From Erysipelotrichaceae bacterium (lineage in GTDB: Bacteria > Bacillota_I > Bacilli_A > Erysipelotrichales > Erysipelotrichaceae): 32,000 nucleotides of DNA. How positions within the stretch are numbered: the first letter of the stretch is position 1; the number at the start of each line of letters is the position of its first letter. Below the pieces are notes generated by a model. That model worked only from the letters and a program-made list of their open reading frames with translations. It was not told the DNA's origin and made no database searches. The position numbers and the translations under genes were made by a program. Below are positions 3,350 through 30,335 of this stretch, one piece after another. The stretch covers positions 270,001 through 302,000 of the forward strand of contig OY781039.1 in the NCBI GenBank assembly GCA_963676105.1. The letters run 5' to 3'.

Positions 3350-4726
3350 ATGAAAAAACAGAAATGCTCTTTTTTATTGGGACTACTTGCAGCTCGTTTA
3401 TCAATGCTTGCGCTTAAAGTTTTAAAACGTAATGGCACGCACTTTCCTGGGCATATTGCACTTAAATATTGTCCAGAATTTTTATCACACTTAGCTCAAC
3501 CTAAAAAGCTTATTGCGATTACTGGAACTAATGGTAAAACAACGAGTTCAAATTTAATCCTAGATGTTTATCAACAAACGGGTTTAAGTATCGCCCATAA
3601 TTCACTTGGGTCAAATATCCAAGAAGGCATTATCACGACGTTATTAAAAGGTTCTTCTTTTTTTGGTTCTAAACCAATAGTAGATTTGGTTATTTTAGAA
3701 GTTGATGAACGAGTATCACCTAAAATATATCCTTATATCAAACCTGATTATTTATTAATTACAAATTTATTTAGAGATAGTTATCGACGTAATGGTCCAG
3801 TAGATTTTATTGCGGATATACTAGAAAAATCTATTCCTACAGAAACTAAACTTATCGTTAATGCAGATGATCCAATTAGTTCATATCTATGTCAAAATAA
3901 TGAGCGATTTGTCTTTAGTATGGATGCATTAAAGGATGAACTTGAAATCAAAGATAGTTTGATAAAAGATCTTGTATATTGTCCAGTCTGTGATCATAAA
4001 TTAACGTATTCTTTTAATCGTTATCACCATATCGGACATGTGTATTGTAGAGATTGTGGGTTTACAAATTTAGATTCGAATATTTCAATTGTTAAAGTGG
4101 AAGATGAAGTCCATGTAAAACTTGATGATCGTATTTATTTATTCCCTCGCATCGGAGAGAATGTGACGGATTATTATAATATGTTGTCTGCGATTGCGAC
4201 GTGTTTATATACAGGTTTAACGATTGAAGATATTCAAGCTTACTTTAAAAATCTTAAAGTTGTGAAAACACGATTTAATATTTCAGAAGAAAAAGGTAAA
4301 CGTATCATTACTATGATGTCAAAGGATCAAAATCCAGTTGCGGCATCACGTGTTTCTGATTATATTCGTCGTCAAAATGATCGGAAAACGGCTGTTATTT
4401 TAATTAATGAAGATTCATTTCATAAAACGACAAGTGAAAACACAGCTTGGTACTTCGATGCTGATTTTGAATATTTAAACCAAGAACATATAAGACAAAT
4501 TATTGTAGGAGGTTGGCGTACACTTGATGCGAAAGTCCGCTTTTTACTTGCAGGCGTGGATGAAAGTAAAATCTTACTTGCCAATGATGAATTAAGTACT
4601 TATAAATTTGTTGATTTTACACAAGTTGAAGATGTTTATATTTTGTATGGCACTAAAACTGAAGCAGAAGCACAAACAATAAAGAATAATTTATTGAAAC
4701 GAATTGAAAAGGAGCTTGGTCAATGA
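3350..4726 (+). CDS. murT: Mur-ligase-family subunit MurT of lipid II isoglutaminyl synthase
   Basis: P-loop GTNGKTT, Cys4 ribbon CPVC...CRDC, and a C-terminal WYFDADFE region. It is colinear with S. aureus MurT as I recall that sequence. Start set at ATG 3350 (MKKQK...); the GTG at 3311 in the track lies inside the terminator hairpin. An ATGA overlap links it to the next gene. Confidence 0.85.
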   Translation: MKKQKCSFLLGLLAARLSMLALKVLKRNGTHFPGHIALKYCPEFLSHLAQPKKLIAITGTNGKTTSSNLILDVYQQTGLSIAHNSLGSNIQEGIITTLLKGSSFFGSKPIVDLVILEVDERVSPKIYPYIKPDYLLITNLFRDSYRRNGPVDFIADILEKSIPTETKLIVNADDPISSYLCQNNERFVFSMDALKDELEIKDSLIKDLVYCPVCDHKLTYSFNRYHHIGHVYCRDCGFTNLDSNISIVKVEDEVHVKLDDRIYLFPRIGENVTDYYNMLSAIATCLYTGLTIEDIQAYFKNLKVVKTRFNISEEKGKRIITMMSKDQNPVAASRVSDYIRRQNDRKTAVILINEDSFHKTTSENTAWYFDADFEYLNQEHIRQIIVGGWRTLDAKVRFLLAGVDESKILLANDELSTYKFVDFTQVEDVYILYGTKTEAEAQTIKNNLLKRIEKELGQ

Positions 4727-5436
4727 AAATAGAAGTTCTATACGCAAAAGTTTCTAATCTTTATGGTGATCAAGGTAATGTTTTGTTGCTTAAAAAAACT
4801 TTAATTGGTGCGACATTTTATGAAACAGACTTAAATGAAACTCCAAAGTTTGTAACATCAAAAATTAACTTAATCATTATGGGTTCAATGAGTGAAAAAA
4901 TGCAAATCAAGGTGATTAATCGTTTAATGCCCTTTAAAAATCGAATCATTGAAATGATTGATGCAGGTGTTCATTTTGTGATTACTGGGAACGCATTAGA
5001 TATTTTTGGGGAAGGGATTCAAAAAGAAGATGGATCTTTTGTCGAAGGTTTAAATATTTTTCCATTCAAAACAAAAGAAGATTTAATGCATCGACATAAT
5101 TCATTTGTTTTAGGGAGATATAAGAATATGGAAATTGTTGGTTTTAAAACACAATTTGCACAATTGTTTCCTAGCAGCAAATGTCCTCATTTCTTAGATA
5201 TCGAACGTGGTACGGGTTATCATGTTGGCTCAAAGGTCGAAGGTATTCAACGAAATCGTTTTTATGGGACCAACTGCATTGGACCATTACTGGTCTTAAA
5301 TCCATTTTTTACGCTAACTTTATTAAAAGAACTGGGCATTAATAATCCTCGTTTACCCTTTGAAAAATCTTTGATTGCAGCTTATCACAAACGAGTATCA
5401 GAACTTAGAGATCCTAAAATAATTAATTATCCTTAA
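4723..5436 (+). CDS. gatD: GatD-like (CobB/CobQ-type amidotransferase) partner of MurT, apparently lacking the Cys/His catalytic residues
   Basis: 237-aa ORF translationally coupled to murT. It is colinear with S. aureus GatD (SNLYGDQGN, IVGF, GTxxxGPLL). The nucleophile motif reads VITGNALDIFG and the His motif reads GTNCIGPLL. Confidence 0.7.
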   Translation: MKIEVLYAKVSNLYGDQGNVLLLKKTLIGATFYETDLNETPKFVTSKINLIIMGSMSEKMQIKVINRLMPFKNRIIEMIDAGVHFVITGNALDIFGEGIQKEDGSFVEGLNIFPFKTKEDLMHRHNSFVLGRYKNMEIVGFKTQFAQLFPSSKCPHFLDIERGTGYHVGSKVEGIQRNRFYGTNCIGPLLVLNPFFTLTLLKELGINNPRLPFEKSLIAAYHKRVSELRDPKIINYP

Positions 5437-7488: not shown

Positions 7489-8637
7489 ATGTTAGATCGC
7501 GTTAACCCTATCGTAAAAGATATTAAATTAAGTGGCATTCGTCGCTTTAATCAAGCAGCTAAAAAAATTGAAAGCGCTGTTTCACTAACCGTTGGTGAAC
7601 CAGAATTTGATACTGTTCAACCAATTAAAGATGCGGCTTATGAAGCCCTTAAAAATAATCGTACACACTATCCAGTTGGTTTAGGTGTGCAAGAACTCAG
7701 AGAAGCTGTTGCTGAATTTGAAAGCAAAAATCCACAATCAACTTACTCAAGTGATGAAGTTATTGTCACGGTTGGGTCTACCGAAGCTTTATCTGCTGTC
7801 TTTTTCTCAATTTTAGAAGAAGGGGATGAAGTTATTATTCCTGAACCAATGTATTTGGTCTATCGTCCTTTAATTGAGCGTGTTGGCGCAAAAGTAGTTT
7901 CACTAGATACCACGCAAGATGATTTTCAAATTAATCGTGATAAATTAGCTGCATTAGTAAGTGATAAAACAAAAGCGATTTTAATTACATCTCCAAATAA
8001 TCCGACAGGTGTTATCTACAATAAAGAAAGTTTAGATATCGTTGTTGAATGTGCTTTAAAATATCGTACGTTTTTAATAAGTGATGATGTTTATAATCAA
8101 TTGGTTTATGTGGATCATTTACCTAGTTTAAGAGATTATCCTGAAGTCCGTGAACAACTCATTATTACGCAATCTTATTCAAAACCTTATGCGATGACAG
8201 GTTGGCGTATTGGCTATATTTTAGCGGATCAACCGATCGCAAAAGTCGTGGGATCTTTTCATCCATATATGGTCAGTGGTATTGCAACATTTATTCAAGA
8301 TGCAGCAATCACAGCTTTAAAACAAGACACCACTTGGATGCGTGATTTATATCATGCACGTCGTGATAAATCTTTAACTATTTTAGCTGAAAACAATATT
8401 AAAGTAGTTAAACCTGAAGGAGCGTTCTACTTCTTTGTTGACATCAAAGAATTCAACATGGGTTCAGAAGCCTTCTGTGAGAAAGCACTTTATGATTATA
8501 AAGTTGCGATGGTTCCAGGTGTTTACTTTGGTGAGAACTGTGATCACTTTATCCGTTTATCCTATGCGACAAGTGAAGACCAACTTTATGAAGGTTTAAA
8601 TCGCTTAGCTACTTTTGTTTCTGATTTAAGAAAATGA
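7489..8637 (+). CDS. PLP-dependent class-I aminotransferase (AspC/PatA-like)
   Basis: 382-aa ORF with LSGIRRF, SLTVGEPEF, NPTG and SYSKPYAMTGWRIGY (Schiff-base Lys). AAGGAGA SD is present. Confidence 0.85.
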   Translation: MLDRVNPIVKDIKLSGIRRFNQAAKKIESAVSLTVGEPEFDTVQPIKDAAYEALKNNRTHYPVGLGVQELREAVAEFESKNPQSTYSSDEVIVTVGSTEALSAVFFSILEEGDEVIIPEPMYLVYRPLIERVGAKVVSLDTTQDDFQINRDKLAALVSDKTKAILITSPNNPTGVIYNKESLDIVVECALKYRTFLISDDVYNQLVYVDHLPSLRDYPEVREQLIITQSYSKPYAMTGWRIGYILADQPIAKVVGSFHPYMVSGIATFIQDAAITALKQDTTWMRDLYHARRDKSLTILAENNIKVVKPEGAFYFFVDIKEFNMGSEAFCEKALYDYKVAMVPGVYFGENCDHFIRLSYATSEDQLYEGLNRLATFVSDLRK

Positions 8638-9122
8638 AAAACGTTTTAAAAACGATATTACTAACTTTACATACCCAAATAATCATTAACCTTTTTGTCT
8701 TTATCTTTATTCAGTTAGGCATTAAGGTTTTTGTCTTTAATGAACACAACTTAGTTAATTCAGTCCTTTTTGCGCTTAGTTTAATACCACCTTATTTTCT
8801 AATTTCATTATGTTTAGGTTTACTTAAACCAAAACTATTAAGTCTACCTTTTAAAGAATGGTCATTATTAATTCTTTTAATCGGGCTATACACATTGAGC
8901 TTTATCTTGAGTCAAAGTGATTTCAATCAATGGAGAATCTACTTTATTGGCCACATGCCAGTTGCCTATATGCTTCGATCATGGCTACCATCAGACTTTG
9001 ATTTTACTCAACAATTTCTAATAGGTTTAAGTGCCCTGACACCTGCTTTAGGTCTAAAGTTTGGTTATGAAATTAGTGCTTGGTTAAATAGGCGTTTTAA
9101 AAAATCACGCAGACTAGCGTGA
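8634..9122 (+). CDS. Small polytopic membrane protein, function unknown
   Basis: 162-aa hydrophobic ORF with an ATGA overlap to the aminotransferase gene. I recognise no motif. Confidence 0.5.
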   Translation: MKNVLKTILLTLHTQIIINLFVFIFIQLGIKVFVFNEHNLVNSVLFALSLIPPYFLISLCLGLLKPKLLSLPFKEWSLLILLIGLYTLSFILSQSDFNQWRIYFIGHMPVAYMLRSWLPSDFDFTQQFLIGLSALTPALGLKFGYEISAWLNRRFKKSRRLA

Positions 9123-14933: not shown

Positions 14934-16064
14934 ATGAATGATATGAACGGTAAACTCTTAAAAGAAGGCTATACTTTTGATGATTTATTATTAGTGCCTA
15001 ACTTTTCTAGCGTTGTCCCAAAGGATGTATGTTTAAAGACTCAATTAAGTGAGAAACTACAACTTAAAATTCCAATTATATCCGCTGCCATGGATACAGT
15101 TACGGAAGATAAGATGGCGATCGCATTAGCTAAAGCAGGTGGTCTAGGATTTATCCATAAAAACTTAAGCGTTGAAGCACAAGCTGAAATGGTTAAAAAT
15201 GTAAAAGCACTAAAAGGGGATGATCAAGCGGCCGTTGATGCGAAGGGTTATTTACTTTGTGGTGCTGCTGTTAGTGTTAATGCTTATTCAATGGAACGTG
15301 TTAAAGGATTAGTCGAAGCGGGTGTTGATGTCATCACTGTTGATTCAGCTCATGGGCACTCTCTAGGTGTTATTAACACAATTAAAGAAATTCATAAAAG
15401 TTATCCAGAATTAGATATCGTAGGTGGAAACATTGTTACTGCAGAAGCAGCGAAAGCACTTGTTGAAGCTGGCGCAAGCATTATTAAAGTAGGTGTTGGT
15501 CCTGGTTCTATTTGTACAACTCGTGTTGTTTCAGGGGTTGGAGTTCCACAACTTACTGCTGTTAATGATGTCTATGAATATGCAAAAAACCACAATGTAG
15601 CAGTTATTGCCGATGGTGGTATTAAACTTTCTGGTGATATTGTAAAAGCGATTGCGGCTGGGGCAGATGCAGTTATGTTAGGCGGACTGCTTGCCGGTAC
15701 TGAAGAAACACCAGGTGATATTATTGAAGTATATGGTAAAAAAGTTAAGACCTATATGGGTATGGGATCTTTAACAGCGATGCAAAAAGGGAGTTCAGAT
15801 CGATATTTCCAAGGTGGCGAAAAAGATCTTAAAAAACTTGTACCAGAAGGTATTGAAGCAACCGTTGCCTATAAAGGACCAATGGCGGATGTTGTCTATC
15901 AAATGATGGGTGGCTTACGTTCAGGTATGGGTTATTGTGGTTGTGCGGATATTGCACATCTTAAAACTGATGCGAAGTTTGTTAAAATCACGAATGCTGG
16001 TTTAACAGAATCTCATCCGCATGATGTTCAAAATATCCAGGAGGCTCCAAACTACCGTGGCTGA
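14934..16064 (+). CDS. guaB: IMP dehydrogenase lacking the CBS/Bateman subdomain
   Basis: [28 protein letters not shown] (catalytic Cys), [15 protein letters not shown] and ESHPHDV..EAPNYR are present. GGAGGA at 14921..14926 favours ATG 14934 over 14919. At about 376 aa it is roughly 110 aa shorter than canonical GuaB. Confidence 0.9.
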
Positions 16065-17594: not shown

Positions 17595-18995
17595 ATGAAT
17601 TTTGCTAAACAACAATTAAATCAAAAACATCTGTTTATCGGCTTAATTGTTTTTAGTGTAAGTTATCTTCTTTTGCCAAATAATCTATTTACTTATGAAG
17701 CTAAGTTAGCTATGTCTAGCTTAGCTTTAATGATTTATTGGTGGATAACACGGCCTATTCATATTGCGGTAACAGCTTTATTGCCAATTGCCTTGAACAG
17801 TGTTTTTTCTTTTGCTAGCATGTCGAATATCCTTGCTAATTATTTTTCTCAAATTGTTGTGTTACTTCTTGGAGCAAATATATTAACGCTAGCTTGGAAG
17901 AAAACAGGTTTAGATAAACGAATAGCCTTAAAATCATTAAACTTAATTGGAACAAATGTTAAATATCAATTGATTGTATGGTTTATGTTATCAATTTTAT
18001 TATCAAGCGTATTACCCAATGCGGTTGTGGTAGCAGCATTGTCACCTATAGCATATTCAATGATGACATATCTAGATGAATCTTCAAGTAATCAATCGAT
18101 TCTTCATATGATATTGTTGATGATTGTTTGGGGCGCTGGTTTAGGTGGATTTGGTACACCGTTAGGTGGCGCAATGAATTTAGTTGCGATTACCCATATT
18201 GAAAATTATATTGGTAGAGAATTTATGTTTATTGATTGGGTTCTAACAATGGTCCCTTATATCTTTCTTTTGTCTGTAGGTTTCGTTTTATATATTCTAT
18301 TTCAAAAATATGAACAATCTAAGATAGAAGGAAGTCATGATTACTTCATTCAATCCTATAAAGCATTAGGGAAAATGAGTAAAGCTGAAGTTGTTTCGCT
18401 CGTCTTATTTACAATTCCTGTGATTTTGTCCTTTATACGACCTTTATATGCAAATTTATTGCCTGATTTTAAACCATTTTTTGCCTTTATGGTTTTCGCA
18501 TTATTTGCTTTTGTGATTAGTGATGATGAAAAAAATCTGATAATGACATGGGAGTATGCACAAAAGAATATCAACTGGGGACTAATGATTTTGTTTTCAG
18601 GTGGTTTGGCGATTGGTAATATTTTAATTGAAACAGGTGCCATTGAAAGTTTATCTACAATTATTCAGTTATTGAATTTAAAAAATATTAGTTTGATTAT
18701 TATAGTCATTTTGATTTTAGCTATGTTTTTAGCGAATGCGTCTAGCAATACGGCAGCGGTAGCTATTTCTGTACCTTTAGTGATAGGAATTATGAATTCT
18801 TTTGATCTAAATACATTGGGCTTTGTTTATATAGCAGTAGCCGCAAGTAATTGTGCTTTTTTATTTCCAACCTCAATTCGAGCTATTTCGATAGGTTTTG
18901 GAATTACACCTGATTATCTCTTTAAAAAGGGGGTAATTGGTGTGTTTATTAGTTTTATCATTTTGTTTACTTATGCTTTGTTTGTGATTAGTTAA
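17595..18995 (+). CDS. DASS/SLC13-family anion:cation symporter
   Basis: 466-aa polytopic ORF with WWITRPIHIAVTALLP and an SNT hairpin motif (ANASSNTAAVAI). It starts 6 nt after guaA. Confidence 0.65.
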   Translation: MNFAKQQLNQKHLFIGLIVFSVSYLLLPNNLFTYEAKLAMSSLALMIYWWITRPIHIAVTALLPIALNSVFSFASMSNILANYFSQIVVLLLGANILTLAWKKTGLDKRIALKSLNLIGTNVKYQLIVWFMLSILLSSVLPNAVVVAALSPIAYSMMTYLDESSSNQSILHMILLMIVWGAGLGGFGTPLGGAMNLVAITHIENYIGREFMFIDWVLTMVPYIFLLSVGFVLYILFQKYEQSKIEGSHDYFIQSYKALGKMSKAEVVSLVLFTIPVILSFIRPLYANLLPDFKPFFAFMVFALFAFVISDDEKNLIMTWEYAQKNINWGLMILFSGGLAIGNILIETGAIESLSTIIQLLNLKNISLIIIVILILAMFLANASSNTAAVAISVPLVIGIMNSFDLNTLGFVYIAVAASNCAFLFPTSIRAISIGFGITPDYLFKKGVIGVFISFIILFTYALFVIS

Positions 18996-19045
18996 TAAAT
19001 TTGTGTGTTAATAGCGTTTACTTTGTGAAAAATAGATTTAAAATT

Positions 19046-19073
19046 ACGTATTCTATCATAAATACGTTTTTTT
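19046..19073 (+). terminator. Rho-independent terminator (AT-rich stem)
   Basis: Stem ACGTATT (19046..19052) pairs with AATACGT (19061..19067), followed by a T-run. Confidence 0.55.
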
Positions 19074-19094
19074 ATAACAAATGTCAAAATTGCT

Positions 19095-19151
19095 TTGACA
19101 GGATTTTCACAATATGTTTAAATTAATGTATTAATTGTTAAAAGATTAACA
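19095..19151 (+). promoter_or_regulatory. Candidate promoter plus two abutting palindromes upstream of the sulfur/selenium operon
   Basis: TTGACA (19095..19100), a 17-nt spacer, then TTAAAT (19118..19123) preceded by TGt. Palindromes are AATTAAT-gt-ATTAATT (19121..19136) and TGTTAA-aaga-TTAACA (19136..19151). Confidence 0.4.
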
Positions 19152-19186
19152 TATTTGAACAAGTTATATTATAAGGGGAGTTCAGA

Positions 19187-19909
19187 ATGAGTGAAACAAC
19201 AACAAGAAGATCATCAAGAGCAGGCGGTCGAGCTCGTAAGAAAAAAATGAATCAAATTCCTATCGCATTAGGGGTTTTTCTTTTGATTACAGTCATCGCT
19301 ATTTATCTCACATTAAGAAATGAAACATTAGGGCTATTTTGGTTAATAGGTATTGCTTTTGGCTTTATCCTCCAAAGAGCTCGTTTTTGCTTTACCGCTT
19401 CAATGCGTGATCCATATTTAACAGGATCAACGACTGTAACACGTGCTGTGTTAATTGCGTTTGCGGTTAGTTCAATTGGTATTACAGCGATTAAATACGG
19501 ATACCTAATGAATGGTTTAACTGTTCCAGGATCAAGTTATATTGTGCCTATCTCTATTGCGACAGGTGTTGGTGCGTTTATGTTTGGTGTGGGTATGGTT
19601 ATAGCCGGTGGATGTGCATCAGGAACACTAATGCGAATTGGTGAAGGGTTCTGGATGCAATTACTATCATTATTTTTCTTTGTAGTCGGCTCACTATGGG
19701 GCGCACATGATTTTGGATGGTGGTATAGAAACTTCATGGTAAGTGGTAAACGTGTCTTCTTACCTGATTACTTTACGAATTTATTTAATTCAACTGCTTT
19801 TGGTTGGTTTGTTGGATTGCTTACAAATTTATTAATTATCTTAGGATTATATATTGCAGCTCACAAATGGGAAAATCGCAAAAAAGATCCAGATATGGAA
19901 AGTCATTAA
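19187..19909 (+). CDS. YedE/YeeE-family (Sulf_transp) membrane protein corresponding to the C-terminal half of E. coli YedE
   Basis: 240-aa ORF with LQRARFCFTASMRD and AGGCASGTLMRIGEG, and a basic N-terminal tail. GGGGAG SD is present. Confidence 0.8.
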   Translation: MSETTTRRSSRAGGRARKKKMNQIPIALGVFLLITVIAIYLTLRNETLGLFWLIGIAFGFILQRARFCFTASMRDPYLTGSTTVTRAVLIAFAVSSIGITAIKYGYLMNGLTVPGSSYIVPISIATGVGAFMFGVGMVIAGGCASGTLMRIGEGFWMQLLSLFFFVVGSLWGAHDFGWWYRNFMVSGKRVFLPDYFTNLFNSTAFGWFVGLLTNLLIILGLYIAAHKWENRKKDPDMESH

Positions 19910-19947
19910 ACATTTTTAAATAAGATACATAATGGAGGAACTTAAAA

Positions 19948-20175
19948 ATGGCTAAAGAAGTAGTATTAGATTGTCTAGGTGAGGCTTGTCCTGTACCGCT
20001 CGTAAAAGCAGAAAAAGCATTAGAAAAATTAGCATCTGGGGATGTGCTTATTGTGCAAATTGACCACAGTTGTGCGATGAAAAATGTACCTGAATGGGCA
20101 CGTAAACAAGGTCATGAAGTTGAACTTGAGGAAGTTGATGATGGCGAATGGGAATGCATCATCGAAAAGAAATAA
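19948..20175 (+). CDS. TusA/YedF/YeeD-family sulfur-carrier protein, copy 1
   Basis: 75-aa ORF with the CPxP motif (GEACPVPLV). GGAGGA SD lies 8 nt upstream. Confidence 0.85.
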   Translation: MAKEVVLDCLGEACPVPLVKAEKALEKLASGDVLIVQIDHSCAMKNVPEWARKQGHEVELEEVDDGEWECIIEKK

Positions 20176-20199
20176 TTTAGTTATCGGAGGAAATATAAA

Positions 20200-20427
20200 A
20201 TGGCTAAAGAAGTAGTATTAGATTGTCTAGGTGAGGCTTGTCCTGTACCGCTCGTAAAAGCAGAAAAAGCATTAGAAAAATTGGCATCTGGCGATGTACT
20301 TATCGTTCAAATTGATCATAGCTGCGCAATGAAAAATGTGCCTGAATGGGCACGTAAACAAGGTCACGAAGTTGAACTTGAAGAAGTTGATGATGGCGAA
20401 TGGGAATGCATTATTGAAAAGAAATAA
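20200..20427 (+). CDS. TusA/YedF/YeeD-family sulfur-carrier protein, copy 2 (protein identical to copy 1)
   Basis: 75-aa ORF with the same amino-acid sequence as copy 1 and 15 synonymous nucleotide differences. GGAGGA SD lies 8 nt upstream. Confidence 0.85.
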   Translation: MAKEVVLDCLGEACPVPLVKAEKALEKLASGDVLIVQIDHSCAMKNVPEWARKQGHEVELEEVDDGEWECIIEKK

Positions 20428-20454: not shown

Positions 20455-21003
20455 ATGAAGAAGTTTTTTGACAACATTAAAAAGAATGAATTCTACCTAA
20501 TGTGGTTTAAAAATGCTTGGCCATATGTGACAGGTGGTGTCTTATTAGCACTATTTCAAATCGTTACATTTGCGACAACTGGTAACCCTTGGGGTGTATC
20601 TGGTGTCTTCGCTAACTGGGGAGCATGGTTATTTGAAGCTGTTGGTGGATCTGTTGATGAATGGTATTACTTTTCATCTCCAGGTGCTCAAGCTACTTTA
20701 ACAAACGGATTTTTAGATGACGCAGGTACATGGCGAAACTTAGGTATTATCTTTGGTGCTTTGTTCTCAACGTTAATCGCATCTGGATTTAAATTCAAAA
20801 AAATCAAATCTGTTCGTCAAGTTGTTGCGGCAGTCTTAGGTGGTTTATTAATGGGTTATGGTGCACGTATTGCTTATGGATGTAACATTGGTGCGCTATT
20901 CTCAGGGATTGCATCTCTATCATTATCTGGTTGGGTATTTGCAATCTTTATGTTTGCAGGCGCAGTTGTTGGTAGCAAACTATTAGTTAAGTATTTTATG
21001 TAA
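20455..21003 (+). CDS. YedE/YeeE-family (Sulf_transp) membrane protein corresponding to the N-terminal half of E. coli YedE
   Basis: 182-aa ORF with TGNPWGVSGVFANWG and GYGARIAYGCNIGALFSG..SLSGW. GGAGGA SD is present. Confidence 0.8.
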   Translation: MKKFFDNIKKNEFYLMWFKNAWPYVTGGVLLALFQIVTFATTGNPWGVSGVFANWGAWLFEAVGGSVDEWYYFSSPGAQATLTNGFLDDAGTWRNLGIIFGALFSTLIASGFKFKKIKSVRQVVAAVLGGLLMGYGARIAYGCNIGALFSGIASLSLSGWVFAIFMFAGAVVGSKLLVKYFM

Positions 21004-21013
21004 AGGAAAAATT

Positions 21014-22231
21014 ATGGCTAGAGAAAAAAAAGTAGAACAATATGATGTAGTTGTAGTAGGTGGTGGGGCTTCAGGTCTTACAGCCGGTATCTATTGTGGA
21101 CGCGCTAAACTAAAAACTTTAATTGTTGAACAAGCATTAGTTGGTGGCATCGCAACAAATACAAACGAAATTGAAAATTATCCTGGTTTCCCAGATGGTA
21201 TTTCAGGAATAGATCTTATGAATCTATTTAAAGATCAAGCAAAGAAATTTGGTTGTGACTTTAAATTAACAAACATTAAAACAGTCGATTTCTCATCAGA
21301 TGTAAAAATTTTAGAAACATTTAGAAATCGTTATGAAGCAAAAGCCGTTATTATTGCGAACGGTTCAAAACCTAGAGTACTAGGGATTGAATCAGAAGAA
21401 CAATATATTGGCAAAGGGATTGCGTTCTGTGCAACATGTGATGCAGCAGCAAATACTGGCAAAACAGTCGTCGTTGTTGGATCAGGAGATGCTGCTATTG
21501 AGGAAGGTATATTCCTAACTAAATTTGCTGATAAAGTTATTGTTTCAGTTTTACATGATGAAGGCATTATGGATTGTAATGAAATTGCGAAAGCAGCAGC
21601 TTTGGCAAATCCTAAAATGGAATTTAAATGGAATACAGTTGTTAATGAATATGTCGGTGGCGAAGAGCTAGATGGTGTTGTTCTTAAAAACGTTAAAACT
21701 GGCGATTTAGAAAGAGTTGATTGTGCAACTTGCTTCTTATTTATAGGTTATGTTCCTAATACAGCAATTTACGAAGGTGTCATAGATATGACAAGTCGTG
21801 GTTATATTCTAACTGACGAAGTAATGCGCACAAGTGCTCCTGGTGTATTTGCAGCAGGTGATGTTCGTGATAAATTCTTACGTCAAGTTGCGACATGTGT
21901 AGGTGATGCAGCCACAGCTGGTGTTATGGCTGAAAAATACATTGCTGAAAGTGAAATCTTTGAAGAACAAATCATGGTCGGTAATGGTGTTGCTTATGTG
22001 TTTGAAGCAATTGATGCAGATCAAAGAAACTTTTTATCTACTATTGAAAGCTTAGAAGAAAGTCATTCAGGTGTTGCATTCCATAAAGTGGATACTTATA
22101 AATCAAAAGGTTTAGCTGTACGTTTAGGTGTTAGTGAAATGCCTGCCGCAGTCATTATTAAAGAAGGCAAAATTTCTGAAACAATTTTAAAAGATAAATT
22201 AACTAAAGAAGCAATCGAAGAAGCACTTTAG
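21014..22231 (+). CDS. Thioredoxin-reductase-like FAD flavoprotein (CATC) fused to a Cys-less thioredoxin-fold domain
   Basis: 405-aa ORF with VVVGGGASGLTAG, CATCD, GSGDAAIEE and GVFAAGDV. The C-terminal ~95 aa show a Trx-like pattern (VAYVFEA...KVD...LGVSEMPAAVIIKEGK) with no cysteine. Confidence 0.8.
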   Translation: MAREKKVEQYDVVVVGGGASGLTAGIYCGRAKLKTLIVEQALVGGIATNTNEIENYPGFPDGISGIDLMNLFKDQAKKFGCDFKLTNIKTVDFSSDVKILETFRNRYEAKAVIIANGSKPRVLGIESEEQYIGKGIAFCATCDAAANTGKTVVVVGSGDAAIEEGIFLTKFADKVIVSVLHDEGIMDCNEIAKAAALANPKMEFKWNTVVNEYVGGEELDGVVLKNVKTGDLERVDCATCFLFIGYVPNTAIYEGVIDMTSRGYILTDEVMRTSAPGVFAAGDVRDKFLRQVATCVGDAATAGVMAEKYIAESEIFEEQIMVGNGVAYVFEAIDADQRNFLSTIESLEESHSGVAFHKVDTYKSKGLAVRLGVSEMPAAVIIKEGKISETILKDKLTKEAIEEAL

Positions 22232-22245
22232 GGAGGAGTACATTT

Positions 22246-23139
22246 ATGAAAAAAAGATTACTCATTATTCTAAGCGCTTTAATATTGTCGTCATTATCAG
22301 CATGTGCAAATTATGATTTTGGTGAAACTGGTCAATATATTGTTACTGCTGATGAAGTTGAATCACTTGTTGCTGATGGGGCTATTGTTGTAGATGCTCG
22401 TTCTGCTGAAGATTATTTAGTGGATCATTTAGCTGGTGCAATTAATATTCCTATGGGAGCACTTGTAGTAAATGAACCATATGCGAATATGCTGCCTGAA
22501 GCAGATCAAATTGAAATGGTTATGGGTGCAGCAGGTGTTAGTGAAAATGACACATTGCTTATTTATGACAACTCAAACAATATGTTAGCGGCACGTGTTC
22601 AATGGACACTAAATATGTATTCAAACTTTAATGTCAAAGTGATTAGTGGTGGTTATCAAGCACTTATTAATGAAGGGCTTGAAATGAATACGACAAACAC
22701 CACTTTACCTGAAACTGTTTATACTGCAGGTGAATATCAAAAGACACTAATTACTTCATTAGCTTATATCAATTCAACATTGAATATTCCTGATGAAAAT
22801 ATTGTCATTATTGATACAAGAAGTGCTGAAGAATACAATGCTGGAACAATTCCAGGTGTATTGCATAAAGAATATGTATGGACGATGTATGCAAACGGTG
22901 TTTATAAAACGGTTGATGACTTACAAAGTACCTATTTAGATGAAGGCTTAATGCCTGATACAAGAATCATTCTATTCTGCAAAACATCGGTTAGAGCAGC
23001 TCAAGTTTATACAGCTCTTAAAGATGCAGGATACACTGATGTACGGATATATGATGGAGCATGGTTAGAATACTCTGAACTTGGAGAAGTCTGGGTTCCA
23101 TCTTCAAATATCACACCAACGAAGCAAGACGCTTCATAG
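22246..23139 (+). CDS. Tandem-rhodanese (thiosulfate/3-mercaptopyruvate sulfurtransferase-like) lipoprotein
   Basis: Signal peptide with lipobox LSAC. The N-domain is inactive (IYDNSNN) and the C-domain has the active loop FCKTSVRAAQ. GGGAGGAG SD is present. Confidence 0.8.
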   Translation: MKKRLLIILSALILSSLSACANYDFGETGQYIVTADEVESLVADGAIVVDARSAEDYLVDHLAGAINIPMGALVVNEPYANMLPEADQIEMVMGAAGVSENDTLLIYDNSNNMLAARVQWTLNMYSNFNVKVISGGYQALINEGLEMNTTNTTLPETVYTAGEYQKTLITSLAYINSTLNIPDENIVIIDTRSAEEYNAGTIPGVLHKEYVWTMYANGVYKTVDDLQSTYLDEGLMPDTRIILFCKTSVRAAQVYTALKDAGYTDVRIYDGAWLEYSELGEVWVPSSNITPTKQDAS

Positions 23140-23149
23140 AGAGGGAAAA

Positions 23150-24031
23150 ATGAAAAAATTATTAGGTTTACTCGTAGCTACAATGATGGTATTCTCACTT
23201 ACTGCATGTAGCTCAGACACAGCTGCAGATGATACAACAGCTGGTGATGAAGTTACAGTGAATGCAGTAGAAGCTGCTGCAACTGCTTACTTTGCAGAAT
23301 TTGATGGCAACAATATCGTTGCTTGGGCAGATGTATTTGCGATGATCGATGCAGGGGATGCTCCTTATATCTTAAGTATCCGTTCAGCGGATGATTATGC
23401 TGCAGGTCATATCGAAGGTGCAGTTAATGCTGCTTGGGGTGCTGACTTAGCATCTAAAGTTGCTATGTTACCAACAGATCAACCGGTTTATGTTTACTGT
23501 TACTCAGGACAAACTGCTGGTCAAACAGTTGCATTATTAAATATGATGGGTGTTGAAGCATATTCAATTAAATCTGGATTTGTTAATGGCGCGATGACTA
23601 CTGAAGGTTACGAAGCATATGTTTCAACTGATGCTGTTGAAATGAGTGATGCTGGAGCTTCATTTGATGCAGATGTATTAGCTTTTGTTCAAGATTACTT
23701 CAATGCTATTCCTGAAGGTGGAAGTAATATCGTTGCTGCGACTGATGCTCAACCATTAATCGAAGCTGGTGACAAAGTTGTTATGGATATCAGATCAGCT
23801 GATGATTATGCTGCTGGTCATATCGAAGGTGCTATTAATGTTCCTTACGGTGCAGGTATGCAAGAAAACTTTGCTCAATTTGAAGGACAATCAATCGTTG
23901 TTACTTGTTACTCAGGACAAACAGCTGGTCAAACAGTTGCTATCCTACGTGCGCTTGGTTACGATGCTGTATCACTTAAGAGTGGTATGGGTGGTTGGAC
24001 TGGATCTGAACTACCTGTTGTTACTGAATAA
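23150..24031 (+). CDS. Lipoprotein with two catalytically competent rhodanese domains
   Basis: Start set at MKKLLGLLVATMMVFSLTAC (lipobox LTAC, SD GAGAGGGA) rather than the track start 23081. CYSGQTAGQT occurs in both domains. Confidence 0.8.
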   Translation: MKKLLGLLVATMMVFSLTACSSDTAADDTTAGDEVTVNAVEAAATAYFAEFDGNNIVAWADVFAMIDAGDAPYILSIRSADDYAAGHIEGAVNAAWGADLASKVAMLPTDQPVYVYCYSGQTAGQTVALLNMMGVEAYSIKSGFVNGAMTTEGYEAYVSTDAVEMSDAGASFDADVLAFVQDYFNAIPEGGSNIVAATDAQPLIEAGDKVVMDIRSADDYAAGHIEGAINVPYGAGMQENFAQFEGQSIVVTCYSGQTAGQTVAILRALGYDAVSLKSGMGGWTGSELPVVTE

Positions 24032-24060
24032 AATACAAATTATTTTATAGGAACTACATT

Positions 24061-24095
24061 AAATCCACGGCTTGATACCGTGGATTTATTTTGTT
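24061..24095 (+). terminator. Rho-independent terminator
   Basis: 10-bp stem AAATCCACGG (24061..24070) pairs with CCGTGGATTT (24078..24087), followed by a T-rich tail. Confidence 0.85.
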
Positions 24096-24143: not shown

Positions 24144-25670
24144 ATGAGAGAAAAAATAAAGAACTATAAAACAATATTAATCTTACTTAGCTTATATTTT
24201 TTATTGAGTATAAGTTTCTTAGATACTTTTCCTTTTATGCACTCTGATGAATCTTGGTTGTCTGGTTTAACAAGAGTGATGATACATACAGGTTTAAATT
24301 CAACTGAGACTTTCTTTGATTTAGTTCCTCGTTTTCCACATGCAATAAAATCATTATTTCATTTGATGCAAATGTTGTTTATTACAATGTTTTCTTATGA
24401 TTTATTCTCAGTTCGACTATTGTCGCTTGTATTTGCGATTGCATTTTTATTTGTTTTTTATAAGCTTTTGACGGATGTATTAAACAATAAAGTGTATGCA
24501 GTTGTATCAACTTTTATAATTGCCTTTGATATTCAATTTATTTATGCATCACATTTTGCTCGACAAGAGATTATTATCGGTTTTGGAATGATTCTAAGTC
24601 TTTATTATCTACAACACTTTATTAATAATTGGTCAATCAAGAATGATCTAATTCTAGGCTTAACGATAGGTGTGTTTATTGGTGTGCATCCCAATGCTTT
24701 TTTAATTGCTGTTGTTATGGGGAGTTTGTATCTATATTATCTGTTTGTTGAACAAAAACTTAAATTTAAGAACTTACTATTATTAGTTTTAACGGTCTTA
24801 ATTTTAGCCTTAATTTTTGTAGGAATTAGTTATCACTTTGATTCTCAATTTATAAACCATTATTTAAATTATGGTGATGATTTGGGGGTAAAACTAAGTT
24901 TAATTGAGAAAATAAAAAATATTATTCCTTTTTATCAAAAACTCTATTTAGGAATATCGGCAACCTACTTTACGCCTTGGATTCAATTTCAATTACTCTT
25001 ATTTGCTTTTTCTATTATTATTTCAATCAATTATGCGTATAAAGATAAGAAAATATTGAAATTTACTTTACCAATCGTATTTTTAAATCTTGGCTATATT
25101 TTTATTGGACGTTATTCTCAACCATCAATCTTGTTTATGTTTATATTATCTTATGAACTTGTATTCTATTTAATTTCAAAATTGAAGAAATTCGTTTTGA
25201 TTTTATTATCGATTTTATGTTTATCAACTTTGGGTTCTTCAATATTACAAATAAGTCATAAAATGAATAATGAGTATTCAAACTATATCCAAGAAATACA
25301 AACAATTATTCCGAGTGATGCTAATGTATTGGCTAATTTAAATACTGAGTTTGCTTTTGATTACAATCATTTATTTGATGTTCGTAATTTGGATTATTTA
25401 AGTGTAAATAATCTAAGCTTTGAGGACTATATTTTAAAGAATAATATCGAATATATTGTTTATGCTGAAGAAATGGATTTTATTTATCAAAGCCGTCCAG
25501 TTTGGAATATTGTTTATGGGAATCTTTATCCTTATTATGAAGATATGCAAGAATTTATAAGTAATGATTGCGATTTTGTTTATGAATTTTCATCATCTTA
25601 TGCAATGCGAATAGTTGAGTATACTGACGATAAAGAATGGCTTGTTAAAATATATAGGGTAGTGAAATGA
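24144..25670 (+). CDS. Polytopic GT-C-fold glycosyltransferase (GT39/GT83, ArnT/PMT-like) with a C-terminal extracytoplasmic domain
   Basis: 508-aa ORF with many TM segments. There is an acidic motif HSDESW after TM1 and a ~130-aa soluble C-terminus. The assignment rests on architecture and operon context, not on a search. Confidence 0.5.
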   Translation: MREKIKNYKTILILLSLYFLLSISFLDTFPFMHSDESWLSGLTRVMIHTGLNSTETFFDLVPRFPHAIKSLFHLMQMLFITMFSYDLFSVRLLSLVFAIAFLFVFYKLLTDVLNNKVYAVVSTFIIAFDIQFIYASHFARQEIIIGFGMILSLYYLQHFINNWSIKNDLILGLTIGVFIGVHPNAFLIAVVMGSLYLYYLFVEQKLKFKNLLLLVLTVLILALIFVGISYHFDSQFINHYLNYGDDLGVKLSLIEKIKNIIPFYQKLYLGISATYFTPWIQFQLLLFAFSIIISINYAYKDKKILKFTLPIVFLNLGYIFIGRYSQPSILFMFILSYELVFYLISKLKKFVLILLSILCLSTLGSSILQISHKMNNEYSNYIQEIQTIIPSDANVLANLNTEFAFDYNHLFDVRNLDYLSVNNLSFEDYILKNNIEYIVYAEEMDFIYQSRPVWNIVYGNLYPYYEDMQEFISNDCDFVYEFSSSYAMRIVEYTDDKEWLVKIYRVVK

Positions 25671-27459: not shown

Positions 27460-28727
27460 AGATTATGGTTTTAGGCGGTGGAAACTGCCAAATAAATTTA
27501 ATAAAAAGATTAAAAGATAAAGGCGATGAAATTATCCTAATTGATTATCTGTCTAATTGTTTAGGTAAATCAGTCTGCAATAAACATTATCAAATATCAA
27601 CGTTTGATACGCCAAAAGTTTTAGAAATTGCAAAAACCGAAAAGATCGATGCTATTGTAACTTTAGGAACTGATCAACCGATTTATACGGCGGCTGTCGT
27701 CGCAAAAGAATGCGGTTTACCATTTTACTTAAATCCTGAAGAAGCTTTATCAGTGACCAATAAAAGAGTGATGAAAAAGATGTTTAAAGAGTATTCGATT
27801 CCATCAGCAAATTATGTCCTAATTTCAGAAAGTTTCAAGGACGAAGAAGTAAACAAATTAAAGTTTCCTTGTGTTTTAAAGCCAGTTGATTCACAAGGTC
27901 AAAGAGGAATATATAAACTCAATTCAATCGCTGAAATTCGAGCGGTTATTAAAGATACTTTGAGTTATTCACGTGAAGATAAAGTCTTACTTGAAGAATA
28001 CTATGATAGCGACGAAATAACTGTTAATGGTTGGATAACAAATGGTAAACTAACACTTTTATCAGTGGTGGATCGAGTAACACTACAGGAAAATCAACAT
28101 ATTGGAATTTGTATAGCCCATAATTTTCCATCTCAACATTTGAAGCGTTATTATCAAGATATTGAGAATTTAACTCAAAAAGTTATTCAGAGTTTTAATC
28201 TAACAAATGGACCTGTCTATTTTCAATATTTGATTGGGGAAAAGGGACTTCAAATTAATGAAATTGCGATGCGGATTGGTGGAGCTTATGAAGATATAAC
28301 CTTACCACTTATTACTGGGATAGATGTCTTGGATGTCTTAATTCAATCTATAAAAGGTAATAAAATAGATGCCTCAAAGTTTGATGCTTACCAGCTTAGT
28401 CAAAATCAAGTCTATCTTTCAACGCAAATGTTCTTTTTAAATAAAGGCTGTATCACAAACATTTTTTATGATCAAGATTCATTAAGTAAAGCACGCATCA
28501 GTCATTTAAATATTGCACGTCATATTGGTGATCAAATTAGGGACATCCAAAATGCGACAGCTAGAGCAGGTTACTTTTTAGTACAGGCGAACACAGTTTC
28601 TGAACTTAAGTTAAATATTCAAAGAGCTTATCAGAATGTAAAAATAATGGATGATAAAAAAAGTAATTTAATAAAAAATTACTTTGATTATCAAGATCGT
28701 TATAAATATGCTCCAACCGATTTATAA
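27456..28727 (+). CDS. ATP-grasp carboxylate-amine ligase
   Basis: 423-aa ORF with MVLGGG, VLKPVDSQGQRGI, LLEEYY and NEIAMRIGGA. ATGA overlap with the GT2 gene. Confidence 0.75.
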   Translation: MKIMVLGGGNCQINLIKRLKDKGDEIILIDYLSNCLGKSVCNKHYQISTFDTPKVLEIAKTEKIDAIVTLGTDQPIYTAAVVAKECGLPFYLNPEEALSVTNKRVMKKMFKEYSIPSANYVLISESFKDEEVNKLKFPCVLKPVDSQGQRGIYKLNSIAEIRAVIKDTLSYSREDKVLLEEYYDSDEITVNGWITNGKLTLLSVVDRVTLQENQHIGICIAHNFPSQHLKRYYQDIENLTQKVIQSFNLTNGPVYFQYLIGEKGLQINEIAMRIGGAYEDITLPLITGIDVLDVLIQSIKGNKIDASKFDAYQLSQNQVYLSTQMFFLNKGCITNIFYDQDSLSKARISHLNIARHIGDQIRDIQNATARAGYFLVQANTVSELKLNIQRAYQNVKIMDDKKSNLIKNYFDYQDRYKYAPTDL

Positions 28728-30335
28728 GCCTTCGTTGGTATCACGTTTTAGATAGCCGATATAGGCAAGGACAATTAAAACTACACTAAGACATAATGTT
28801 GTATAAAAGACAGTCATATTAAAAGATTCGACTGGAACACGACTAATCCAATTAAAGATAGCTGTTTGTTCAAGAATTTTAGGTAAATCTAAGATTTCTT
28901 TAAAGTAATACATAAAGAAAGAATAGGTTAAATAGACATAGACAGTATTACGTGCTTTGGGAAGATATGCAATAAAGAGACAAGACAGAGCTAAAAAGAA
29001 AAACATAGCTGGCATAAAATTAAAGCTTGCTTGCATAAAATCGTTTAATGTCATTACAGTCGTGCTATTCATCACAGTTAGCGCTGTTAAACCTAAACTT
29101 AAAGCACTTAATAGAATACTGATTAGAATTGCGAGTGTTGCTAAAGATAAATTAGTGCCAAAAAGCTTAAATCGACTTATTTTATGGGTTGAATAAAGCT
29201 GGCTAAGATGCATTCTTTCTTCTTGAAGATAGAGTTTATTCATGATGTTTATAGGAAGAATTGCTACAGTAACCATGATAAACATAACCATAACGGAGGT
29301 AAAAGATGCTTCTAGCGAACTACCACTATAAAGAAAGAATGATTTTAAAATATCATTACCTTCTAAAAAGGTTTGCATATTACCATAAATAGAACCAAAA
29401 GTTACACCTAAAATAATATAGGTGCTAAACCAGGTGATTATCGATCCTTTATTCAGCCGCCAAAAGATACCAATCACGCTCATCAGTGATTTTTTAGCGT
29501 TTGCACGTCCCTCATAGGCAAAAAGATATCCTGCGCCTAAATCACGTTTAAGTTCTAAAGTAGAAGCGACAAACCATAAAATAATACTTAACAAAACGAG
29601 ATATAGGATGGGTATAAGATCATTGTTTGAAAAGGGATAGGAAAGATAAGTCCATGCGATTGGATTGTAAGAAGTTAAAGCGTGATAAGATACATCACTG
29701 AGTGCACGACCTAGATAAAATAGGCCAATCAAAGCTAAACTCATCCCATTTGCGCCAGCCGCTGTTTCATTGATTTGAGCCATCACTAAAGCAATTAGAG
29801 CACCAAAAACGCCTGCTACCCCGATCGACAGAGATAAAAGAAAAGACCCCCATAAATCAATTGATTCGACTTTGAAACTTATCATCGCAAAAGTATTGAT
29901 TAGAACAAATAAAGTTTGAATGAAAATAGTTTCTAAAATGATCGCAAAAGAATTAGCTAATCTTCCTACTTTAGTGGAACGGATTAACTCGCTTAAACCA
30001 TTTGCTTCATCTTTTCTTGTATGTGATACCACATGTAAGATAGAAATAACCATCGCAATGATAGCCATGAACAACAACATTTCATGCGTAAACATGGCAC
30101 CAATGGTATATTCACTGGCTTGTACTGGTGTAGGACCAACTAAGGCAATCATGGCTGGATTCTGCATGATTTCAAATTCACCAATTAAGGCTTGACCTGC
30201 GCCTAATTTATCAAAGGCTGGGACAAAACCAGCGGTTAATAAAACTAAAGAGATGACCCAAAAAACAATTTTTTTCCAATCTCTTTTGAGATGAATAAGT
30301 AAGAGTAGTGGGAAACGGTAAACTTCTTTAAACAT
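28722..30335 (-). CDS. ABC transporter permease (large ABC-2-like, ~12 TM)
   Basis: 537-aa hydrophobic ORF starting 11 nt downstream of the ATPase gene. GGAGA SD is present. Confidence 0.75.
   Translation of the reverse strand: MFKEVYRFPLLLLIHLKRDWKKIVFWVISLVLLTAGFVPAFDKLGAGQALIGEFEIMQNPAMIALVGPTPVQASEYTIGAMFTHEMLLFMAIIAMVISILHVVSHTRKDEANGLSELIRSTKVGRLANSFAIILETIFIQTLFVLINTFAMISFKVESIDLWGSFLLSLSIGVAGVFGALIALVMAQINETAAGANGMSLALIGLFYLGRALSDVSYHALTSYNPIAWTYLSYPFSNNDLIPILYLVLLSIILWFVASTLELKRDLGAGYLFAYEGRANAKKSLMSVIGIFWRLNKGSIITWFSTYIILGVTFGSIYGNMQTFLEGNDILKSFFLYSGSSLEASFTSVMVMFIMVTVAILPINIMNKLYLQEERMHLSQLYSTHKISRFKLFGTNLSLATLAILISILLSALSLGLTALTVMNSTTVMTLNDFMQASFNFMPAMFFFLALSCLFIAYLPKARNTVYVYLTYSFFMYYFKEILDLPKILEQTAIFNWISRVPVESFNMTVFYTTLCLSVVLIVLAYIGYLKRDTNEGL

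Follow-up and report, generated by a model that had tools for sequence, protein, structure and literature searches.

Two adjacent tusA/yeeD-like genes, found within a 32,000-nucleotide stretch of DNA from an Erysipelotrichaceae bacterium (the whole of which we call the window), encode one and the same protein and have exactly 15 nucleotide differences, every one of them a synonymous change in the third codon position. We consider it probable that the pair is a genuine and old tandem duplication whose proteins have been kept identical by purifying selection together with intermittent gene conversion, higher dosage being the presumable benefit of a second copy. A split importer gene encloses the pair, one half on either side, in the following cluster.

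17595-18995, plus strand: Na/sulfate-symporter-like gene, in the same plus-strand cluster as the genes below
19187-19909, plus strand: N-terminal half of a split YeeE/TsuA-type sulfur (thiosulfate) importer (PF04143 Sulf_transp, positions 1-156 of 310, E=8e-30)
19918-19947, plus strand: copy-1 leader, with AAATAA at 19918-19923 followed by 24 nt that include the SD GGAGGA at 19934-19939
19945-20030, plus strand: 86-nt identical tract, positions -3 to +83, the same as 20197-20282 and a putative gene-conversion tract
19948-20175, plus strand: tusA/yeeD-like copy 1, 228 nt, 75 codons and stop, CPVP motif with Cys14
20031-20088 (copy 1) and 20283-20340 (copy 2), plus strand: diverged central patch, codons 28-47, with 11 of 20 codons silently different
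20176-20199, plus strand: 24-nt spacer between the tusA copies, with the SD GGAGGA at 20186-20191, homologous to the copy-1 leader (15/24)
20200-20427, plus strand: tusA/yeeD-like copy 2, 228 nt, protein identical to that of copy 1
20455-21003, plus strand: C-terminal half of the split YeeE/TsuA-type importer (PF04143, positions 164-310, E=1.6e-34)
21014-22231, plus strand: thioredoxin-reductase-like (TrxR-like) flavoprotein with a weak C-terminal thioredoxin-like tail (PF07992, E=3.6e-43)
22246-23139, plus strand: double-rhodanese protein with a lipoprotein-type signal peptide (…LSSLSAC; PF00581 in two stretches)
23150-24031, plus strand: second double-rhodanese protein with a lipoprotein-type signal peptide (…FSLTAC; PF00581 in two stretches)
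24060-24088, plus strand: terminator-like hairpin closing the operon, an 11-bp stem followed by a T run

The common 75-residue product of the two copies matches PF01206 (TusA) with E=3.5e-25 and 88.1 bits against a gathering cutoff of 28.6, and carries the CPxP motif as GEAC14PVP, which aligns with the C17 motif GEVCPIP of Spirochaeta thermophila YeeD (StYeeD). Its PDB matches are S. thermophila YeeD in the YeeE-YeeD fusion structures 8K1R/8J4C (E=1e-11) and TM0983 (E=7e-14). Codon-by-codon comparison placed the silent differences (13 transitions and 2 transversions) in codons 28, 31, 33, 35, 36, 39-43, 47, 56, 61, 71 and 72; nt 1-83 are identical in both copies, the differences being confined to nt 84-216, and GGAGGA stands 8 nt 5′ of the ATG in each. 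On recount, the coordinates, the 15 silent third-position sites, the identity of nt 1-83, the 24-nt spacer and the two SDs were all as given in the initial annotation. Its assertion that 15 silent changes out of 15 are incompatible with neutral drift also stands: with S=45.7 and N=179.3 sites, a formal estimate gave dN=0 and dS=0.43 (NG86; dS=0.59 by ML), and the chance that unconstrained changes would all be silent is ~0.203^15 = 4e-11, so that neutrality is rejected for the copy pair. The codon-usage gap between the copies is negligible (summed log relative codon frequency of -21.2 vs -18.8), and their GC3 (0.25 and 0.23, vs 0.22 for the window genes) matches that of the genome and gives no sign of a foreign origin.

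The same annotation regarded an all-silent pattern as extraordinary, an impression that dissolves when the TusA family is considered. TusA protein matches are 81-95% identical across Clostridia and Spirochaetes, and the orthologues of two different organisms (loci L001 and L002) encode identical TusA proteins from genes separated by 27 silent nucleotide differences; other close-relative tusA pairs show 10-38 silent vs 0-13 replacement nucleotide differences, and orthologue omega is 0.010-0.057 (NG86), so that dN far below dS in the copy pair is matched by a similarly low omega among orthologues. If the region-specific silent:replacement ratios of orthologues are applied to the 11 silent changes in codons 28-47 and the 4 in codons 48-75, ~1.1 replacements are expected for 15 silent changes, and the probability of observing none is ~0.3. 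Within the protein, the diverged patch corresponds to part of the conserved core GDVLIVQIDHSCAMKNV, a core that every close relative keeps unchanged save for an occasional I38L or I38V. Judged by these comparisons, 15 silent changes out of 15 are not exceptional for the TusA family, because a family dN/dS of 0.01-0.06 predicts about one replacement. The strong purifying selection that had been proposed for both copies is thus supported by the omega values, but it is the normal state of the TusA family and nothing specific to this pair.

We regard the mosaic arrangement of the differences along the gene as the informative feature. In permutations that spread 15 differences over codons in proportion to synonymous sites, with silent sites assumed to be exchangeable, a first difference at codon 28 or later had P=0.00025 (0.0003 when rounded), an identical run of at least 27 codons anywhere had P=0.008-0.009, and at least 11 differences within 20 codons had P=0.0017. 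Over codons 1-27 the copies show no difference across 18.3 synonymous sites, while the window differs from relatives there at 8-11 silent and 3-4 replacement codons; since relatives differ at that many silent codons, silent sites in this region are free to vary. Of the 20 codons from 28 to 47, 11 are different between the copies, a number within the range of 8-13 that separates the window from other lineages. Two lineage-specific residues inside the identical tract, A2 and V19, are common to both copies, and the best protein matches all belong to an S2/I19/A75 group.

These observations make it unlikely, in our judgement, that an old duplication was shaped by purifying selection alone, without conversion, and that its 5′ identity reflects chance or silent-site constraint. 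The family does accumulate many silent changes without a replacement, as L001 and L002 illustrate, and 6 of the 11 complete tandem pairs considered below lack significant clustering of differences; such an account nevertheless has to accommodate a 27-codon identical run and a 5′ placement that are both improbable by permutation, silent sites in codons 1-27 that are unconstrained, lineage-specific residues common to both copies, and an abrupt drop of identity at the 5′ border, from 100% in the first 83 coding nucleotides to 15/24 in the adjoining leader/spacer. The mosaic fits an old tandem duplication that would have been partly homogenised by gene conversion, probably in patches over parts of the 3′ third as well. 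A 5′ conversion tract superimposed on an old duplication, one of the explanations put forward in the initial annotation, is the best-supported reading on account of the 5′ position and the length of the run (P=0.009 for the longest identical run when the permutation is used as a gene-conversion test), with additional support from the region-wise divergence, the divergence of the leader and the concerted evolution in other lineages described below.

The sequences around the copies point to the extent of the duplicated unit. Aligned without gaps, the 30 nt upstream of each copy agree at 21 of 30 positions, AAATAA at -30 to -25 and the SD among them, compared with a mean of 9.6 and a maximum of 20 matches in 378 unrelated upstream pairs of the window, and the downstream flanks of the two copies are unrelated (7/30 match). 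The flanks had been described as different sequences, which holds downstream but not upstream. A match above the control maximum suggests that the duplicated unit comprised leader plus gene, 252 nt, and this unit seems to be bounded by AAATAA at both ends, with the copy-1 leader as its probable left end. No promoter-like or terminator-like site was found on the plus strand in the spacer or in either tusA copy. Minus-strand terminator-like matches within the copies, at 20086-20101 and 20338-20353, correspond to a palindrome in the coding sequence for V-P-E-W-A, GT(A/G)CCTGAATGGGCAC. Owing to the silent difference at nt 141 its stem is perfect only in copy 2, a feature that is probably meaningless.

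Marginally less likely than purifying selection alone is a recent duplication after which one copy received the patch of codons 28-47 by homologous recombination from a related organism. The copy-2 patch is indeed somewhat closer to L001, L035 and L038 (10-11 nt differences) than to copy 1 (11); the copy-1 patch lies at a greater distance from these three loci (13-15), and four of its states are found in none of the relatives. However, among 71 tusA sequences no donor for either central patch was closer than 10-11 differences in 60 nt, both copies have the GC3 of the genome, four further differences lie outside codons 28-47, and the leader/spacer has already diverged at 9 of 24 positions, which argues against a recent duplication.

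The closest relatives, 12 loci with 8 distinct TusA sequences of 87-95% amino-acid identity, all have a single tusA between the YeeE halves; among them is L058, the locus of the best non-self match to the TrxR-like protein. No same-genus relative stood among the matches listed (identity reaches 95% at most for TusA and 80% for the TrxR-like protein), and exact-sequence look-up returned no identical copy of the window TusA or TrxR-like protein. Among the matches listed for more distant genomes (65-83% identity), 1 of 27 loci, L004, has a tandem, the copies of which are separated by 12 silent differences, one stop-codon change and one V/I replacement. In metagenome contigs, a scan with a junction pattern (in which D, any base except C, was set between two adjacent variable gaps) yielded 19 loci ordered YeeE-N, tusA, tusA, YeeE-C, TrxR-like, and with L004 the tandem architecture thus recurs in 20 other assemblies, with diverse spacers of 11-90 nt. 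Tandem loci are scattered among single-copy loci in a YeeE-C tree, the sample for which was ascertained for tandems and gives no frequencies. Eleven tandem pairs are complete, and in 5 of them the two proteins are identical, with 2-15 silent differences.

L042 pair: identical proteins, 2 silent differences
L050 pair: identical proteins, 5 silent differences, with an identical tract of ~195 nt
L039 pair: identical proteins, 6 silent differences
L056 pair: identical proteins, 9 silent differences
Window pair: identical proteins, 15 silent differences
L004 and L055 pairs: one residue differs
L048 pair: three residues differ
L040, L041 and L049 pairs: four or more residues differ, and copy lengths are also unequal at one end

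Eight tandem pairs taken together have 63 silent and 5 replacement codon differences, the ratio being as in orthologues. At L054 (2884-3095) the first tusA copy is frameshifted near codon 50 and the second is intact, which may represent a tandem that is losing one copy or a sequencing error. The gene order is permuted in L020, L023 and L029 (TusA, YeeE C-half, YeeE N-half, TrxR-like, the usual order being N-half, TusA, C-half).

In all clades that contain several tandem loci, a copy is closest to its partner in the same genome, with 0-10 silent and 0-1 replacement codons between the two and 5-23 silent and 0-11 replacement codons between genomes. The clearest case is provided by L039 and L042, whose duplication predates their split, because the spacers (52/67) and the flanks (71/80 and 79/80) are orthologous; 6 informative sites nevertheless group the copies by genome and 1 by position, a split that we take as direct evidence of concerted evolution. 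Four other quartets gave 6:0, 10:0, 9:0 and 22:0 in favour of genome over position, although the by-genome grouping in these clades could partly stem from independent recent duplications, since the tandem loci came from a search aimed at tandems and a shared spacer is demonstrable only for L039/L042. Differences between copies are significantly clustered in 5 of the 11 tandem pairs (long-run tests: window P=0.009, L040 P=0.006, L050 P<0.0002, L004 P=0.026, L049 P=0.048). Because of the by-genome grouping and the clustered differences across tandem loci, gene conversion is, as far as such patterns can be read, a general property of the tusA tandem. For the window pair itself the case is built on the mosaic (P=0.009) and the region-wise divergence, the by-genome test being one that needs a close relative with the tandem, of which we found none. 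The comparison with relatives that the initial annotation had proposed thus gave a twofold answer: the 12 closest loci are single-copy, and in tandem-bearing genomes the paralogues group by genome.

The tandem loci also speak to the suggestion that silent divergence was selected in order to block RecA-mediated collapse of a dosage duplicate, an explanation from the initial annotation that we now consider very improbable. Eleven differences in 58 nt of the mid-gene region do split the repeat into shorter identical blocks, but a perfect repeat of 86 nt remains, identical tracts are longer elsewhere (~195 nt in L050) and L042 has only 2 differences; moreover, the patch is no more diverged than in between-species comparisons, and codon choice is unremarkable in both copies. 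That the tandem is an assembly artefact in which two strain alleles were joined is hardly credible, even if the window is probably metagenome-derived, given that the spacer derives from the leader by divergence (15/24) and does not repeat the true flank, that each copy has its own SD, and that 20 other assemblies, all independent, show this architecture too, their spacers measuring 11-90 nt.

The preferred reading, an old tandem duplication maintained by purifying selection and gene conversion, can be set out as a sequence of steps. A tandem duplication of leader plus YeeD/TsuB-like tusA (252 nt) would have arisen between the split-YeeE halves and been followed by long divergence, in the course of which leader/spacer and central coding patch came near to silent-site saturation; it is from this near-saturation that the duplication is judged to be old, an age estimate that is drawn from one 60-nt patch and a 24-nt leader. 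Purifying selection (omega ~0.01-0.06) would have held the protein, the diverged patch encoding a near-invariant core, and gene conversion would have wiped out differences over nt -3 to +83, where most of the amino-acid variation of the TusA family lies.

The setting of the copies is that of a sulfur importer. The N-half (240 aa) aligns with residues 7-129 of S. thermophila YeeE (StYeeE), RFCF and GGCASG containing the first and second conserved cysteines, and the C-half (182 aa) aligns with StYeeE 214-319, YGCNIG containing the third; all three conserved cysteines, equivalent to StYeeE C22, C91 and C293, are therefore present across the split halves. A tusA gene adjoins YeeE-type genes in the window and in all 57 related loci fetched, and, wherever a related locus reaches far enough, the YeeE C-half has the TrxR-like gene as its direct downstream neighbour, these loci spanning Bacillota, Spirochaetota and one Planctomycetota MAG. 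The C-terminal extension of the TrxR-like protein (~90 aa) has a PF00085 match with E=2.4e-4, below the gathering score. The signal peptides of the two double-rhodaneses are MKKRLLIILSALILSSLSAC (22246-23139) and MKKLLGLLVATMMVFSLTAC (23150-24031), and because both are of the lipoprotein type, the two proteins are probably located outside the cytoplasm, upstream of the importer and not downstream of TusA. The real start of the second rhodanese is probably the ATG at 23150, which lies inside an ORF listed from a TTG at 23081. Among open-access and bioRxiv papers we found none that treats TusA, YeeE, rhodanese and thioredoxin reductase together.

Between the Na/sulfate-symporter-like gene and the YeeE N-half there are only 191 nt (18996-19186), with a promoter-like site at 19095-19124. 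At or just upstream of the equivalent place, close relatives have a divergent LysR regulator (12/12 loci) and a second, distant TusA of 71-77 aa and ~37% identity (11/12 loci; the exception, L035, has an unannotated 48-aa ORF in its place), so the genome of the window either lost both or never had either. A role of the tandem as compensation for the missing second TusA and LysR was considered and rejected, as L004, L042, L049, L050 and L051 carry the second TusA together with the tandem.

Elsewhere in the window no Rfam RNA family was detected, and four ORFs of 162-537 aa (4723-5436, 8634-9122, 24144-25670 and 28722-30335) have no Pfam match at E<=1e-5. One of them, the 508-aa ORF at 24144-25670, immediately follows the sulfur operon and is succeeded by a cluster of DegT aminotransferase, glycosyltransferase and ATP-grasp genes. 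The GMP synthase ORF, read from the ATG at 16021, shares 44 nt (16021-16064) with the end of the IMP dehydrogenase gene; its true start probably lies further downstream, because the exact 522-aa sequence had no match in the protein collection.

What two copies might be good for is constrained by their identity. Because the products are identical, they cannot specialise, not even as one copy per YeeE half, and the second gene can affect only the amount or the timing of the protein. The initial annotation had envisaged that each copy docks one YeeE half; apart from the identity of the proteins, the YeeE-YeeD complex is 1:1 with a single cytoplasmic exit (PMC11073785), which speaks against this idea. 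YeeD is essential for YeeE-mediated thiosulfate uptake, binds 1:1 at the cytoplasmic exit, takes thiosulfate on its CPxP cysteine, and has been proposed to dissociate and decompose the substrate (PMC11073785). The carrier would load thiosulfate or sulfane sulfur at the channel exit, leave, and have to pass its load on, presumably to the TrxR-like protein or other acceptors, before rebinding, and an excess of carrier could raise flux. The likely benefit, as we infer it, is a doubled dosage and a higher ratio of carrier to channel, with both copies presumed to be expressed and thiosulfate presumed to be the substrate. Dosage or balance has also been proposed as the reason for concertedly evolving prokaryotic duplicates (PMC6053082). 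Persistence of the tandem to near saturation, and across the L039/L042 speciation, suggests selection for two copies, because an 86-nt perfect repeat can collapse by recombination to one functional gene. As a counterpoint to a dosage benefit, the close relatives (12 loci, 8 distinct TusA) do well with a single copy.

We put forward more tentatively, as a possibility that we would not yet favour, that doubled YeeD/TusA in split-YeeE operons is a recurrent, selectively kept and concertedly evolving dosage module of Bacillota and Spirochaetota. If so, the carrier and not the channel would limit flux, and more than one YeeD would serve each importer in vivo despite the 1:1 complex in crystals. The tusA tandem reveals no new kind of system. 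It offers a small and clean case, evolved repeatedly, of concerted evolution in a bacterial tandem duplicate, together with a testable hint that the YeeE/YeeD importer may require more of its soluble carrier than of its channel, and it illustrates that identical proteins with silent-only differences need no special selection when a family dN/dS of ~0.03 is combined with gene conversion.

Families such as histone H4 and ubiquitin, in which identical proteins are encoded by genes with diverged silent sites under strong purifying selection (the birth-and-death model of Nei and co-workers), resemble the window pair in that synonymously diverged copies yield identical proteins, but differ from it in being eukaryotic multi-copy families. 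Also comparable are tufA/tufB-type paralogues, constrained duplicates that are likewise kept near-identical by conversion and purifying selection (Wang & Chen 2018, PMC6053082); tuf copies, however, are dispersed and conversion usually keeps their silent sites alike, whereas the window copies are adjacent, 228 nt long, patchily converted and at a dS of ~0.43. That survey covers 26 prokaryotic genes in concerted evolution, and its main text names neither TusA nor YeeD. As to the importer, PmpA and PmpB, half-size proteins of the YeeE family (PMC11582611), are likewise separate N-half-like and C-half-like proteins, for which a heterodimer has been proposed, but each is only ~130 aa long and has four helices and a single cysteine; the window halves are longer, and between them they span nearly all of PF04143 (1-156 and 164-310). 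A further close counterpart is YeeE/YeeD (TsuA/TsuB) of E. coli and S. thermophila (6LEO, 8J4C, 8K1R; PMC11073785), in which, as in the window, a CPxP carrier adjoins a Sulf_transp protein with three cysteines. In contrast to that system, YeeE of the window is split into two genes, the carrier gene stands between the halves and is doubled, and the operon, whose substrate and activity are here predicted from sequence, adds a TrxR-like flavoprotein and two lipoprotein-type rhodaneses.
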